Source: an uncultured Bacilli bacterium (GTDB lineage: Bacteria > Bacillota_I > Bacilli_A > RF39 > UBA660). From it: a stretch of 52,319 nt of DNA. The stretch covers positions 1 through 52,319 of the forward strand of contig CALVKO010000002.1 of the NCBI GenBank assembly GCA_944332725.1. Reading direction: 5' to 3'. How positions within the stretch are numbered: the first letter of the stretch is position 1; each line of letters begins with the position of its first letter. The position numbers and the translations under genes are program-made. Below, in pieces: positions 18,629 to 25,795 of the stretch. Under the pieces are notes generated by a model, which saw nothing but the letters and a program-made list of their open reading frames with translations, was not told the origin of the DNA and made no database searches.

Positions 18629-20569
18629 TTAATATATATCAGTTAAATATTTCATTATTTTTTTATATTCGCTTGAATCATTTTCACTACTAATTAAATC
18701 TAAACATTTATTATATTCTTTCAAATACTTCTTACTAATATTTGAAGGTCTATCATCTTGTATTCTTGCTTTTAATTCTTTTAAACTTTCTATTTCTGAC
18801 TTTGATTTATCTACTGAAATAGTTCCAGCACTGCTAATAACCATGTCATATTCTTGTGAGTCAACTATATATCTTTCGACGCTAAATTTTAATTCATATA
18901 ACTGTTTTAATATCATAACTTCAAGAATTAAATTTTCACTTGTTAAACCTATTTCACTGCTAAGATTTTTAACTATTTCACTTGTATTTCTATTACTTAA
19001 AATACCATTCCAATAACACAATATAAAAATTATTTTATTACTTACGATTTCTTTAATTGTAGAATCTAAAATATTGTTTCCTAACAATTGATTTATTTCT
19101 TTTATTAATTCAATTATAGAGCCCTTTTCAGCTATTTCTTTACCATTTATAACTTTAGCACCATTAAAAAGCTGATTATATATTTTTTTATTTTTTGAAT
19201 TAAATGGAACTATTTTATTTAATCTTTCTAAAATTGAATGTAATTCTTTACGAAAATTTAATTCAATTTCATCTGATGATAGACCATCAAACTCATTTTC
19301 TTTTAATTTCAAAATATTTTCCTTTAATATGTCTATATAGCTTTCTTTTAATTTTTGATATTCACTATTTAATTCATCTTTTGATTTACCTATTAATTCT
19401 GAAAAAATATCTTCTAATTCTCTTAATTCTTTTGATAAAGATATTCCATTTTCATGTTCTTCTAATGCTTTTAATAAATTTAAATATGGTTTTAATTTAT
19501 CATTTAAACCTATTACTTCATTATATATATTATTTAATTCTTCTTTAAAATAAGTTTCAATATCATATTTTTTTAATGTTAAATTAATTACATATTCGTC
19601 ATCTAAATTTTCTAATATACTTTTTTTTATTTTTTCAAATAATTCACTTAATTTATCTATATATTTAGTTTCACCTATTGATTTTGACAAATTAATTATA
19701 TCTTTTATTTTTAAAAATGTTTCATCATTTTCAATGTTTATTTCTTTACCTAATAAAAATTGTTGGTATTGATTAATTTTCTCACTTAAATTTATTATTT
19801 TGCCTTTAGTATTTAAATTTTGAATAATCATTTCTAAAGAAAATATCAAATTATTTCTTAATGCTTTAGGAGAAGTATCTTCAATTGTTAAACTTGAATT
19901 ATTATCCATATTAAATTGTGGTTTAGATTTTTCTAATTTTGTTTGATATTCATTTATTAAAGATTCAATTTTATCTATAATTACTTGTTTAGATTTATTA
20001 TCCAATAATTCAATCATACTATATATTTTTGATAATAATTCATTTACTTCATTATCTATATTTTCTGTATTTGTTTCATGATTTATAAATTCATCTAAGT
20101 TGATATTTTGTAAAACATTAATGTTAATTTTCGAATATTTGGATGAAATATATTTTATTTTTAATTTTTCAATTAAATTTAATTTATCATTTACAATATT
20201 AATTTCTTTAATACCTAAAAAATGATCAAATTTATACTGTCCACTAGTAACTCGTTTAAACAAGATGAATAAAAATTTATAATCACAATCAATTATTGTT
20301 ATTTTTTTTATATTTCCGCCAAAACAAAAACTACAAAATTCAGCTCCATTATTATAAAATATTACCTCTGTTAACGGATTCAAATGAAAAGCACCTGCAT
20401 CTATTTTTTTTATACTTTTAGGAAGATATAACTTTTTTATATTATTTCTTCTAAATGCACCTCGGCCAATATAAAGTATTCCTTCTTCTAAAATTAAATT
20501 TTCTATATCTTGCCCATCATATTTATAATCACTAATTGCATTCTCCTTTACAACTAAAGTCTTTCCCAT
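18629..20569 (-). CDS. Hypothetical protein: N-terminal BspA-type leucine-rich repeats plus a long helical/coiled-coil region
   Basis: LRR-like LILEEGILYIGRGAFRRNNIKKLYLPKSIKKIDAGAFHLNPLTEVIF, followed by about 480 aa of K/E/L/N-rich helical sequence. No signal peptide. Start taken at MGKTLVV, which follows AGGGTGA. Confidence 0.55.
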   Translation of the reverse strand: MGKTLVVKENAISDYKYDGQDIENLILEEGILYIGRGAFRRNNIKKLYLPKSIKKIDAGAFHLNPLTEVIFYNNGAEFCSFCFGGNIKKITIIDCDYKFLFILFKRVTSGQYKFDHFLGIKEINIVNDKLNLIEKLKIKYISSKYSKININVLQNINLDEFINHETNTENIDNEVNELLSKIYSMIELLDNKSKQVIIDKIESLINEYQTKLEKSKPQFNMDNNSSLTIEDTSPKALRNNLIFSLEMIIQNLNTKGKIINLSEKINQYQQFLLGKEINIENDETFLKIKDIINLSKSIGETKYIDKLSELFEKIKKSILENLDDEYVINLTLKKYDIETYFKEELNNIYNEVIGLNDKLKPYLNLLKALEEHENGISLSKELRELEDIFSELIGKSKDELNSEYQKLKESYIDILKENILKLKENEFDGLSSDEIELNFRKELHSILERLNKIVPFNSKNKKIYNQLFNGAKVINGKEIAEKGSIIELIKEINQLLGNNILDSTIKEIVSNKIIFILCYWNGILSNRNTSEIVKNLSSEIGLTSENLILEVMILKQLYELKFSVERYIVDSQEYDMVISSAGTISVDKSKSEIESLKELKARIQDDRPSNISKKYLKEYNKCLDLISSENDSSEYKKIMKYLTDIY

Positions 20570-20713
20570 AAATATCACCCTTTTTTGATTGGAGTATTAT
20601 ATCACAAATAATACTTTACAGCAAGTTCTTCACAAATATAATCGTTTATAACTTGATTAATACTTATTATCACAGAATAATCAAACAAAATCAATCACAG
20701 TTGAATAAATTAC

Positions 20714-20742
20714 TTGTAAATTATAAATAAATATGCTATAAT
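20714..20742 (+). promoter_or_regulatory. Promoter of the candidate antitoxin sRNA
   Basis: TTGTAA (20714-20719), 17-nt spacer, TATAAT (20737-20742), with a TGc extended -10. Confidence 0.55.
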
Positions 20743-20748
20743 GTATAT

Positions 20749-20862
20749 AGATGAGAAATTCTCATATAATAAAAAGGAATACCTAATGCGCTTTTTTAGG
20801 TACTATCCCTTGTATTTATTTTGGATTAAGTACCGACTTATACAGTTGGTACTATTTTTATT
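20749..20862 (+). ncRNA. Candidate cis-antisense sRNA (type I antitoxin-like), about 115 nt
   Basis: No ORF. Hairpins ATGAGA/TCTCAT and TACCTAA/TTAGGTA, and a terminal stem AGTACCGAC/GTTGGTACT followed by ATTTTTATT. Ends over the stop codon of the convergent 30-aa ORF. Confidence 0.45.
20765..20809 (-). terminator. Putative terminator of the toxin mRNA
   Basis: Minus-strand hairpin GGGATAGTACCT...AGGTATTCC followed by TTTTTATTAT. Confidence 0.4.
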
Positions 20863-20930
20863 AGCATAATTAAAATTATGACAATAAGGAGAATAATGAT
20901 TAGAAAAAGACATTTTTCTGCTTGTTTCAT
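20838..20930 (-). CDS. 30-aa hydrophobic peptide, candidate type I toxin
   Basis: GGAGG sits 8 nt before the ATG. Product MKQAEKCLFLIIILLIVIILIMLIKIVPTV has a single TM helix. Too short to appear in the ORF track. Confidence 0.5.
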   Translation of the reverse strand: MKQAEKCLFLIIILLIVIILIMLIKIVPTV

Positions 20931-20991
20931 TATATCAACCTCCTTTCACATTAAGAGAAAGGAATAGTACCTCATTAAGTATTCCAAAATA

Positions 20992-21020
20992 ATTATAACA
21001 TATAATTAATTTAAAGTAAA
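20992..21020 (-). promoter_or_regulatory. Promoter of the candidate toxin mRNA
   Basis: On the minus strand, TTTACT (21020-21015), 17-nt spacer, TGtTATAAT (-10 at 20997-20992). Confidence 0.55.
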
Positions 21021-21051: not shown

Positions 21052-21207
21052 TTACATCATTTCTTCTAATTCTTTATTCATTTTTTTCTTAGTTTTATTA
21101 ATAAATTTTTCCATTTCTTTCATAACCGGCTTGTTATATTTTTGATACATCATAGTAGCGCCGACACCAAGACCTATTAACATCATACTCTTGATAGTAT
21201 TCTTCAT
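21052..21207 (-). CDS. Small membrane protein (51 aa)
   Basis: AGAGGTGA RBS before MKNTIKSMMLIGLGVGATMMYQKY..., with one TM helix and a K/E-rich tail. Confidence 0.5.
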   Translation of the reverse strand: MKNTIKSMMLIGLGVGATMMYQKYNKPVMKEMEKFINKTKKKMNKELEEMM

Positions 21208-23771: not shown

Positions 23772-25013
23772 TCAATCTAAATTGATATGTTTTTCATATC
23801 TATCACCAAATAACTCTATAAGTTGTAATTGTATAGTTTTAAAATTCATAATAGGTTTATACCATTTTTCTTTTAATTCTTTTATTCTTAAGAATAGTAT
23901 TTTATAAACTGATTCTTCATTAGGAAATGCCCCTTTCCCTCTAGTTACTTTTCTTAATGCAGAATTTACTGATTCTACAGCATTTGATGTATATATGGCC
24001 TTTCTAATTTCTGTAGGTAATTCAAATAATGGATCTAAATATTGCATAAAATTTTCAACTTTTTTAACTACTGAATTAAGACTAGAGAATTCTTTTTTAA
24101 AATCTTCTAGTATTAAATATGCTTTTTCTTTATCAGAACTTGTATATATTTTTTTCCAGAATTGAATAACCTTATTTGCTTGCTTTTTAGGACATATACT
24201 ATATATATTTCTAGTCAAATGTACAACACATCTTTGGGATTGAGTTTTAGGAAATACAAGTTCTAAAGAGCCTTTAAATCCTGCTATCCCATCACTAGAC
24301 ATATATAATATATCTTCAACACCTCTTGATTTCAAATCTTCAAATACATTAGTCCAAAAACTAGCAGATTCATTTTTATCAATCCACATACCTAATATAT
24401 CTTTGTATCCTTGAGCATCTACTCCTATGATTACATAAATGGCTTTTTTTTGACTGTTTATATTATCGCCTTTAATTGGAATATATAAACAATCAGCATA
24501 AGTAAAAATGTAAAGAGGTTTTAGTTTTCTATTTCTAAACTTTTCAACTTCTTCATTAACAGCAGAAATTAATCTCGTTATTTCATCTTTACCAATATTA
24601 ACACCATAAAGATCTTTTAATATTTTCTCAATATCTCTTAAACTAACGCCTTTAGCATATAAAGAAATACATTTATCTTCAAAACCAGTAAGTTTAGTTT
24701 GTCCTTTTTCTATTATAGCAGGCTTAAAACTACCTTTTCTATCACGTGGAGTTTTTACTTCAATAGAACCATATTTAGTTTCAACTTGCTTACTTTTACA
24801 ATAACCATTTCTACTATTATCACTTTTATTACGTTCATATTTAGAATATTCTAAATGATTATCTAATTCAGTATCAAGTAGTTTTTGCATAAGAGGTTCT
24901 AATAAAGAGTCAATAAAATTTTCAACATCCAAACTATTTTTAATTTCTCCATTTTTAAATTTATTAACTGCTTCTTCTATAATCATATCATTTAAAGTTT
25001 TCTCTTTTTTCAT
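23772..25013 (-). CDS. IS256/Mutator-family transposase
   Basis: Core motifs FTYADCLYIP, YMSSDGIAGF and YTSNAVESVNSALRKVTR. Length of 413 aa is typical. Confidence 0.9.
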   Translation of the reverse strand: MKKEKTLNDMIIEEAVNKFKNGEIKNSLDVENFIDSLLEPLMQKLLDTELDNHLEYSKYERNKSDNSRNGYCKSKQVETKYGSIEVKTPRDRKGSFKPAIIEKGQTKLTGFEDKCISLYAKGVSLRDIEKILKDLYGVNIGKDEITRLISAVNEEVEKFRNRKLKPLYIFTYADCLYIPIKGDNINSQKKAIYVIIGVDAQGYKDILGMWIDKNESASFWTNVFEDLKSRGVEDILYMSSDGIAGFKGSLELVFPKTQSQRCVVHLTRNIYSICPKKQANKVIQFWKKIYTSSDKEKAYLILEDFKKEFSSLNSVVKKVENFMQYLDPLFELPTEIRKAIYTSNAVESVNSALRKVTRGKGAFPNEESVYKILFLRIKELKEKWYKPIMNFKTIQLQLIELFGDRYEKHINLD

Positions 25014-25024
25014 AATACTGCTCC

Positions 25025-25795
25025 TTAAATTAATTCTAAATCTGGATAAAGTTGAATAATATCATTTAGCATTAGAATCCATTCATTCTTTTTAAATGAA
25101 GTAAAGCCAAAATAATCATCCATACCACCAAGTTTTTCATAAACTTCTTCTAAATTATTAACATAACTTTTTTGACTGTTAAAACTTAATCTTATTCTAT
25201 CATATAAATATATATTAGCGGAATGCCTAAATAATAATTTTCTAATATTAACACTATATTTGTATAAAGATTCGATATTAGTTAAATACTTTTCAATTAA
25301 TTTTTGATGAATAACATTATTGTATCTTTCTTTAAATTTTTTAAATTGCTCTTTAAAGTCAGTTAAAGTTTTTTGTACATATAAATTATGAAGTTTACTA
25401 CCGATTTCTCTAGCATTTTTTTCATAAGAAAATTTATAAAACTTAGGCATAATATCAGTAATAGAATCTATAAAAGTTATAGTAGGGAATGAAACTTTAG
25501 CAGCCTTTTTAATATTTTTATTATCATCAACAGAAAGAAATAATATATTTTTAATACCTCTAACTTTTAAATTTTCAAAACAATCAAGCCAATATCTATT
25601 ATTATTTTTTCTATCAGTATAAACATTAATTAGAGTTCTAAAACCTTTTTTATCAATACCAACTAAAGTATAAATATCTTCTTTTTCTATATATTCACCT
25701 TTTTTAATATTTATTTCATTTTTAATAGCATAAACAACCAAATAAGTATCTTCTAATCTTCTTTTTGGACAATCTGTTATAGTTAATTCTTTCAT
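25025..25795 (-). CDS. Truncated, probably inactive paralog of the IS256 transposase core
   Basis: Aligns to the core of the downstream ORF (LVGIDKKGFRTLINVY...YWLDCFENLKVRGIKNILFLSVDD). The first Asp position reads AIK, and the Glu position reads HSANIYL rather than TSNAVES. Confidence 0.6.
   Translation of the reverse strand: MKELTITDCPKRRLEDTYLVVYAIKNEINIKKGEYIEKEDIYTLVGIDKKGFRTLINVYTDRKNNNRYWLDCFENLKVRGIKNILFLSVDDNKNIKKAAKVSFPTITFIDSITDIMPKFYKFSYEKNAREIGSKLHNLYVQKTLTDFKEQFKKFKERYNNVIHQKLIEKYLTNIESLYKYSVNIRKLLFRHSANIYLYDRIRLSFNSQKSYVNNLEEVYEKLGGMDDYFGFTSFKKNEWILMLNDIIQLYPDLELI

Follow-up and report, generated by a model that had tools for sequence, protein, structure and literature searches.

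A probable type I toxin-antitoxin-like module of a previously undescribed family in uncultured gut Bacilli, with a toxin messenger predicted to close on its own 3' region

The DNA analyzed here (the window) is a stretch of 52,319 nt from an uncultured Bacilli bacterium of the RF39 lineage (contig CALVKO010000002.1, positions 1 to 52,319, forward strand). A spacer of 473 bp between a leucine-rich repeat (LRR) gene of the LRR_5 family (18629-20578, minus strand) and a gene for a conserved small protein of 51 aa (21052-21207, minus strand) probably holds, as judged from its sequence and that of its relatives, a type I toxin-antitoxin (TA)-like module belonging to a family that has not been described before. 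The minus strand would give an mRNA of ~220 nt for a 30-aa membrane peptide with a single helix, the presumed toxin, and the plus strand a convergent small RNA (sRNA) of ~114 nt, the presumed antitoxin, complementary to the last codons and the whole 3' untranslated region (3'UTR) of the mRNA. This reading is supported by the architecture of the locus, by its conservation, and by the population behavior of the family; we infer that both RNAs are transcribed and that the peptide is toxic.

Results

Anatomy of the locus and chance expectation

The first-pass annotation had pointed to an unannotated locus in the spacer, which it put at ~470 bp between an LRR gene and a small membrane-protein gene, and every element that it named is present where it was placed, on both strands (Table 1). 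The spacer had been left empty by gene callers, and the 30-aa peptide is not on record. On the minus strand a promoter is followed by GGAGG 8 nt before an ATG, by the open reading frame (ORF) of the peptide, and by a hairpin with a T-run. On the plus strand the promoter faces the peptide gene; downstream of it lie several hairpins, no credible ORF, and a terminator whose stem (20829-20853) and T-run (to 20862) sit over the peptide stop codon (20840-20838). A plus-strand ORF at 20741..20869 was rejected because its start falls within the -10 box and because it is not conserved in the homologous module L044 described below. The complementarity of the two predicted RNAs at their 3' ends, estimated beforehand at about 100 nt, is perfect over 98 nt. 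The related hairpin that had been claimed for both RNAs is borne out as well: its sequence (GGAATACYTAATG..GGTACTATYCC) occurs exactly twice in the window against an expectation of 0, and a repeat scan shows that two promoter-plus-hairpin modules are inverted copies of each other. From promoter to promoter the module measures ~330 bp.

Promoter matches alone are uninformative at 23% GC, where 11 promoter-like matches were found against 9.6 expected, a difference that is not significant by itself. Terminators (2 against 0.1 expected) do exceed chance, as do the fold z-scores of -4.0 for the sRNA and -7.0 for the mRNA (mRNA fold -62.4 kcal/mol). The main proof that the locus exceeds chance lies in its conservation over more than 100 related modules.

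Conservation at orthologous loci

The adjacent RecD2-like helicase was used as a query and led to 65 orthologous loci in metagenome-assembled genomes (MAGs) of uncultured gut Bacilli/'Tenericutes', including Candidatus Faecisoma merdavium (Mycoplasmatota according to NCBI). In relatives at 89-98% RecD2 identity the module is kept and the ORF is open, with an in-frame 3-nt deletion in the peptide ORF of one locus (L011); among these close relatives the hairpins are near-invariant, and the linkers between them are variable and contain indels. In relatives at 57-81% RecD2 identity the module is absent and only the small protein is found. A sheep rumen MAG at 55% RecD2 identity (L044) has a homologous module in the same place, inverted, in which ~40% of positions differ; it keeps both extended -10 promoters, a Shine-Dalgarno sequence (SD) 8 nt before the ATG, a hydrophobic peptide of 27 aa, and three sRNA hairpins, and its mRNA has the same fold (z = -7.75). 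Failure of the ORF and promoters to be conserved in orthologous spacers had been named beforehand as grounds for abandoning the proposal, and both are conserved.

Family size, dispersal, and decay

Metagenome contigs were scanned with the block common to both clades, the 3' arm of the mRNA terminator with its T-run. The scan yielded at least 120 stretches, and all family counts given here are counts among the matches listed. A profile search with nhmmer split true modules from chance matches, giving 103 true modules; the 25 matches discarded were mostly one recurrent chance match in a protein-coding gene. Among the 103 modules at least 94 different combinations of flanking genes are represented (124 flanking-protein clusters), and none but the window clade, L147, and L044 have RecD2 as a neighbor. 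Tandem arrays of 2-4 modules (up to four in L097), spaced at 300-350 nt, are found on several contigs and encode diverged paralogous peptides. Arrays at L097:2960-4230 and L149:1510-2070 combine the 27-aa peptide type with a shorter variant of 24 aa (MKKEISFLKLVIIILLIIIVMILV; MKKDIFFLKLIITLLLIIIILLIV), which suggests paralog diversification within arrays. Homology and information content fall to background right outside both -35 boxes, the ends of the module being its least conserved part and the interior its most conserved; the unit is therefore promoter-to-promoter. No match to the module was obtained on viral contigs by pattern scans, or on plasmids and phages by blastn.

Decayed peptide genes are common, and the lesions comprise start codon loss, frameshift or premature stop, 5' truncation, internal deletion, complete loss, and insertion of an AbiE pair. 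When independent profiles for the toxin side and the sRNA side were applied, 92 of 93 toxin sides adjoined an sRNA side, the remaining one being cut by a contig end, and 7 sRNA sides with ample room had no toxin side, an asymmetry that is suggestive only, because the sample was drawn through the sRNA side. Dispersal, tandem arrays, and frequent toxin decay with retention of the sRNA side are population habits of the kind that type I TA systems have.

Constraint on the peptide

An SD-preceded ORF of 24-37 aa at a fixed upstream distance is present in ~63 of 78 unique complete modules, and its SD, start, and length are conserved across the family, which includes GTG starts and GAGGYGG versions of the SD. 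There are three main peptide types: one of 27 aa (44 members), in which M-x-KKDFLI leads into a hydrophobic body, one of 31 aa (7 members), and the 30-aa type of the window (8 members). For 42 unique 27-codon genes the per-site entropy by codon position is 0.75/0.34/0.91, and K3, L7, I15, L18, and L21 are invariant, with K4 and D5 each differing in one peptide; this combination is the signature of selection on the peptide. A type I toxin is a hydrophobic peptide of <60 aa with one predicted membrane helix, encoded by a short mRNA, and such a peptide is found here (30 aa in the window; 24-37 aa in the family). No Pfam, NCBIfam, or PADLOC family matches any of the peptide types (the highest score, for HokA, is 12 bits where the cutoff is 89), a HMMER search of the window peptide against 1.84 billion representatives returned one spurious transmembrane match only, and the peptide motif was not found in the literature searched.

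Predicted fold of the mRNA and its 5'-3' closure

Fifty-six unique full-length mRNAs were each folded independently. Every one of them has nt 1-12 paired to the 3'-terminal region (mean probability 0.99); for nt 13-27 the probability of pairing with the 3'UTR is 0.75. The SD is mostly paired in these mRNAs (probability of being unpaired 0.15), and its complement, the anti-SD, differs by subfamily (CCUCC-GAAA-GGAGG, CCUUC...GGAGG, and CUUC...GAAGGGAGG); the median fold z of the homologous mRNAs is -8.2. Covariation supports both the 5'-3' closure and the helix that buries the SD. The duplex between the 5' element and its own 3'UTR has a mean energy of -32.1 kcal/mol, compared with -26.9 for non-cognate partners (0/5000 permutations) and -12.4 for shuffled ones. 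Counted on anchored ungapped constructs, 91.2% of cells are paired, versus 30-47% when the partners are slid, and the covariation score of the 5'-3' pairing is 0.140, versus 0.083 when shuffled (0/500). The outer helix of 12 bp is 98.9% paired, and its sole variation is C or U opposite G, which is valid on the mRNA strand only. The inner helix of ~10 bp contains real double changes (at one position G-C 11, C-G 7, A-U 6, and U-A 1). In the modeled folds, then, the hairpin that both RNAs carry in related form stems from a conserved pairing between the 5' end and the 3'UTR of the mRNA: the 5' end is in effect a copy of sRNA hairpin 2, in the same sense, and takes up that hairpin's own target on the 3'UTR.

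For the sRNA and mRNA together, the duplex prediction proposed as a check on the locus is strongly favorable, with a cofold ddG of -93 kcal/mol in the window and -79 to -93 over the members measured (ViennaRNA); the overlap is 93-98 nt in the three members measured (window, L011, and L044).

The antisense RNA

A type I system has an antisense RNA gene with its own promoter and terminator, complementary to the toxin mRNA; at the level of sequence such a gene is found here, with 98 nt perfectly complementary to the mRNA. The -10 box of the sRNA promoter is TG-extended in 74 of 85 modules, with a TTGnnA -35 at fixed spacing and a freely varying spacer sequence, and the peptide promoter has TGnTATAAT in the same position in most family members. 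Two positions of sRNA hairpin 2 are fully compensatory (C-G 57 / U-A 10; U-A 49 / C-G 13 / U.G 5), and there are 0 broken pairs in 67 unique sequences; in 50 of the 67 a U.G pair is present that would be an A.C mismatch on the other strand, and the pairing is thus valid for the sRNA strand only. Hairpin 1 lies outside the search pattern; there are 10 versions of its 3' arm, and in 50 of 79 sRNAs the whole arm is complementary to the 5' region of the same sRNA, versus 6% for non-cognate combinations. For the terminator stem at least 6 versions with mutually complementary arms were counted, nearly all with a T-run after them; this count is descriptive only, since the extraction favors whichever arms match best and is biased for that reason. 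With a plain MAFFT alignment RNAalifold recovered hairpin 2 alone; hairpin 1 and the terminator were missed because indels misalign them, and the plain alignment was replaced by anchored fixed-geometry constructs and by tests of cognate against non-cognate arms. Rfam has no match to the window at gathering score, and permissive searches with the window locus and L044 gave unrelated chance matches only, none of them, up to E 10, common to two members.

Two further features of the sRNA promoter region were observed. In L070, L090, L098, L101, L105, L126, L131, L159, and L186 a hairpin and T-run resembling an intrinsic terminator lie between the -35 and -10 boxes of the sRNA promoter (for example GAACTTgcaaaAAGTTCTTTTTTATGcTATTAT), with compensatory variation in the stems; this embedded hairpin, which the window's promoter does not have, may insulate the sRNA promoter from upstream read-through. 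In the window itself the top-scoring promoter-like site of the spacer (TTTACA-16-TATAAT, 11/12; 20615-20642, plus strand) precedes the sRNA promoter by ~100 nt on the same strand and falls within the promoter region of the LRR gene; it might give a longer antisense transcript or might be due to chance.

Table 1. Predicted features of the module in the window
Feature	Position	Strand	Description
Peptide-mRNA promoter	20992..21020	-	-35 TTTACT 21020-21015, 17-nt spacer, extended -10 TGtTATAAT 21000-20992
Predicted peptide (presumed toxin) mRNA	20765..20985	-	~221 nt; predicted start G at 20985, 7 nt past the -10
mRNA 5' element GGAATACTTAATGAGGTACTATTCC	20961..20985	-	weak local hairpin; predicted 27 bp with own terminator region 20809-20776
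Anti-SD CCUUUC / UUCCUUUC paired with GAAAGGAGG	20939..20962	-	SD GGAGG 20943-20939, 8 nt before ATG
30-aa peptide ORF MKQAEKCLFLIIILLIVIILIMLIKIVPTV	20838..20930	-	charged N-terminal head and one hydrophobic helix
mRNA 3'UTR hairpin 1	20829..20853	-	spans last codons and stop; complement of sRNA terminator
mRNA 3'UTR hairpin 1, 5' arm	within 20829..20853	-	second predicted partner of mRNA 5' element
Peptide-mRNA terminator	20765..20809	-	GGGAUAGUACCUAA..UUAGGUAUUCC and U-run UUUUUAUUAUA; complement of sRNA hairpin 2
Antisense sRNA promoter	20714..20742	+	-35 TTGTAA, 17-nt spacer, extended -10 TGcTATAAT
Predicted antisense sRNA (antitoxin candidate)	20749..20862	+	~114 nt, without conserved ORF
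sRNA parts	hairpin 1 20751-20765; A-rich linker; hairpin 2 20776-20809; linker; terminator 20829-20853 and U-run	+	
Region of perfect complementarity	20765..20862	both	98 bp, the whole mRNA 3'UTR and last codons

Neighborhood of the module

The small protein encoded next to the module (21052-21207, minus strand) represents a group of ~50-aa proteins with one hydrophobic helix and a conserved C-terminal ...ELEEMM or LEDMM. Such a protein is found 3' of RecD2 throughout the lineage, down to ~50% RecD2 identity (L021, L023, L025, L026, L033, L038, L040-L042, L044, L045, and L054), and has no significant Pfam or NCBIfam match (DUF3918 at E = 0.17). Exact-sequence look-ups gave no match for the module's peptide or for RecD2 and, for the 51-aa neighbor, same-strain contigs only, a result that is silent on conservation.

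At L022:7504-8959 an AbiEi (PF13338) / AbiEii (PF08843, E = 4.5e-35) pair, a type IV TA system, is inserted, replacing the promoter, 5'UTR, and N-terminal half of the peptide gene and leaving the sRNA gene and the 3' half of the ORF intact; the spot downstream of RecD2 behaves like a TA or defense hotspot. In a lineage without the module, a different, very hydrophobic SD-preceded ORF of 39 aa (MLVVSVMTLLIIIFGLLALMVRYVYMIILALLIIMEKIW; L024:8523-8642) is found 3' of RecD2 and may mark a further locus for a small membrane peptide. Two ORFs of 413 and 256 aa (23772-25795, minus strand) lie close to RecD2 on its upstream side in the window; their counterparts on the same-strain contig L001 carry Transposase_mut (PF00872), which points to an IS256-type element or its remnants near the locus. 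GC skew is negative in 25 of 26 2-kb bins across window positions 1-52319 (cumulative -7.0) and almost every long ORF is encoded by the minus strand, which places the window inside a single replichore of a chromosome very rich in AT (~23% GC).

Discussion

Comparison with known type I systems

The layout of the locus matches that given for all Gram-positive type I families (PMC8594479, PMC6562991). The first-pass annotation had likened it to Bacillus txpA/RatA and bsrG/SR4, and the likeness holds for the convergent promoters, the 3' overlap of ~100 nt, the SD-preceded hydrophobic ORF, and the structured sRNA without an ORF. It does not extend to family membership: there is no sequence homology to txpA/bsrG or to known families, and the match is thus one in kind. 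Convergent promoters, a small hydrophobic toxin, and a partly sequestered SD are shared with B. subtilis txpA/RatA, bsrG/SR4, bsrE/SR5, and yonT/SR6, as is an sRNA made up of successive hairpins, the last of them a terminator with a loop at which the interaction can begin. The antitoxins of B. subtilis pair with their targets over 100-140 bp and promote mRNA decay, usually begun by an RNase III cut, and only SR4 also tightens SD sequestration (PMC6562991); the 98 bp of the window agree with the convergent 3' overlap of 100-140 bp in TxpA/RatA and BsrG/SR4. Unlike the B. subtilis systems, the present family shows no sequence or profile similarity in peptide or RNA (Pfam, NCBIfam, Rfam); its peptides are shorter (24-37 aa), with N-terminal charge and no lysine-rich C-terminal tail, it has no prophage association, its sRNA barely enters the ORF, and its mRNA would be closed by a conserved, predicted 5'-3' helix, the 3' strand of which is part of the sRNA target.

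With par of E. faecalis (fst RNA I / RNA II) and the Fst/Ldr family the locus shares convergent promoters and an intramolecular stem-loop that hides the SD. The fst 5' upstream helix (5'-UH) sequesters the extreme 5' end, contributing to toxin mRNA stability (PMC7472228), and the predicted intramolecular helix at the mRNA 5' end is its analog in function, not its homolog. The par RNAs share one bidirectional terminator and interact by way of the 5' direct repeats DRa/DRb, whereas here there are two separate terminators, a 98-nt overlap, and inverted repeats, so that both RNAs carry same-sense copies. The PXXXG motif, conserved Trp, and charged C-terminal tail of Fst toxins are found in none of the peptide types. 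Long-distance 5'-3' closure, predicted in 56/56 mRNAs with covariation, is a likeness to hok/Sok of plasmid R1 and to Helicobacter aapA1/IsoA1, where such an interaction keeps the full-length toxin mRNA stably folded and translationally inert (PMC6733600, PMC9841398). However, the antitoxins of hok/Sok and AapA1/IsoA1 bind the 5' portion of an mRNA that overlaps them completely, and the message becomes active on 3' trimming; in the present family the sRNA covers the 3'UTR and would target the 3' partner of the lock. Those systems also belong to other, Gram-negative taxa and lack homology to this one, as the HokA score given above indicates. Modules of C. difficile (e.g. CD2517.1/RCd8) resemble the present family in their low-GC Firmicute lineage, convergent overlapping genes, unannotated small ORFs, and multiple copies (PMC6563280), and differ from it in toxins of 34-59 aa with a lysine-rich C-terminus and in lying beside CRISPR arrays or in prophages, none of which is seen here. 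Since membership was not borne out for any known family, the family is regarded as new.

Alternative explanations

Several points weigh against a TA module. Both transcription starts and both 3' ends are predictions. A search for an RNase III signature found none in the sequence fragments searched, a result that is uninformative. The sample on which the asymmetry of decay rests was ascertained through the sRNA side, and one module (L138) keeps an intact 27-aa ORF and has unrelated sequence where the promoter of the sRNA and the 5' arm of its hairpin 1 should be; this module may break the rule that the toxin never occurs without its antitoxin, or it may use another promoter. The predicted effect of the sRNA on SD accessibility is small and inconsistent (from 0.03 to 0.13 in the window and none in L044; ViennaRNA). 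A translational switch operated by the sRNA is not supported, as accessibility hardly changes, and the favorable duplex together with so little change at the SD favors decay over translational control. The peptide, moreover, has no charged tail at its C-terminus, and most family members end hydrophobic; such a tail is typical of Gram-positive type I toxins (PMC6563280). The absence of the tail bears also on the unlikely alternative that this is an ordinary regulated gene and not a TA pair, its product a small membrane protein that is not toxic and whose expression a cis-antisense RNA adjusts. The coding constraint and the features of the RNAs indeed show function and not toxicity, and no toxin family matches the peptide. 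However, housekeeping small proteins are normally single-copy and syntenic, whereas the present module is found in at least 94 contexts and in tandem diverged paralogs, is patchy among close lineages, and has often lost its peptide with the sRNA kept; constitutive burial of the SD and a 5'-3' lock, both predicted here, are moreover characteristic of toxin mRNAs (PMC7472228, PMC6733600). A TA-like module is preferred.

The likeness between the mRNA 5' hairpin and sRNA hairpin 2 could alternatively mean that the two RNAs pair in trans, as par DRa/DRb and SprA1/SprA1as do, or that they bind a common protein ligand, in place of self-closure of the mRNA. Because the hairpin arms are palindromic, covariation alone cannot fully separate 5'-3' pairing in cis from pairing with the sRNA in trans, which is a further point against the reading proposed here; the covariation also fits pairing with the 5' arm of the sRNA terminator, and the overlap is not the site of the functional interaction in Fst/RNAII and SprA1/SprA1as (PMC8594479). 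This explanation is nevertheless quite improbable. The cis duplex, an intramolecular one, is stronger than the trans pairing in 56/56 modules (-32.1 vs -21.2 kcal/mol), only in cis is the outer 12-bp helix unbroken, and the variable bases of the inner 5' element track the stem of 3'UTR hairpin 1 and not sRNA hairpin 2. With regard to a protein ligand, the local 5' hairpin is weak (-3.8 kcal/mol) and would make a poor protein-binding or stabilizer hairpin. Less credible still, to the point of being very improbable, is a mobile element resembling a miniature inverted-repeat transposable element (MITE), an element that would have the inverted promoter-plus-hairpin arms for its terminal inverted repeats and to which the ORF and 'sRNA' would be incidental. 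Its short (~330 bp), dispersed, multi-copy unit in many intergenic contexts and its inverted-repeat arms (repeats I1, I2, I3, I10, and I15) are what such an element would have, but the terminal repeats are not the best-conserved part, as homology stops at the -35 boxes and the interior is best conserved. The ORF, furthermore, is under codon-level constraint with SD, start, and length conserved, the helices keep their pairing through G.U pairs that are valid on one RNA strand only, no phage, plasmid, or viral collection matches, and no transposase is tied to the unit itself.

Proposed mechanism

The model of the TA-like module that follows borrows its steps from three B. subtilis systems (txpA/RatA, bsrG/SR4, and bsrE/SR5) and from fst RNA I with its 5' 'upstream helix'; from these analogies we infer which RNases act and in which direction regulation works. 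On its own the mRNA would be closed, stable, and poorly translatable, with its 5' end on its own 3'UTR and its SD held by the anti-SD. The sRNA would first touch the loops of the 3'UTR hairpins and would then zip into a duplex of ~100 bp; cutting of this duplex by RNase III, together with displacement of the mRNA 5' end from its protective partner, would destroy the message. If the supply of sRNA fell, the stable closed mRNA would persist and could yield peptide, which would damage the membrane. More tentatively, the mRNA may be a self-locked, nuclease-protected, sRNA-resistant reservoir, on which the sRNA would act by displacing the 5' end and so exposing it, leaving the ribosome-binding site untouched. 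The module might then combine the 'fold-back lock' of hok/AapA1 with the 3' overlap of Bacillus systems and be the first type I TA family described in reduced-genome, Mycoplasma-related gut Bacilli.

Significance

The tiny size and fast evolution of both genes make type I TA loci hard to detect, and catalogs of them rest on few cultured model species. The text of T1TAdb lists 24 families and mentions no Tenericutes or Mollicutes, and a literature search for type I TA systems in RF39, Mollicutes, or Mycoplasma gave, among its ranked results, no report treating both. The locus in the window anchors a family of more than 100 members in uncultured reduced-genome Bacilli of gut and rumen (RF39 / Candidatus Faecisoma-like, Mycoplasmatota). 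The family supplies search patterns and profiles for annotating such genes in MAGs, and its very short peptides (27 aa), if toxic, could serve as counter-selection tools. Its rich natural covariation bears on two questions normally approached by mutagenesis only: how a toxin mRNA stays stable yet silent, and how an antisense RNA that binds the 3' region communicates with the 5' end.

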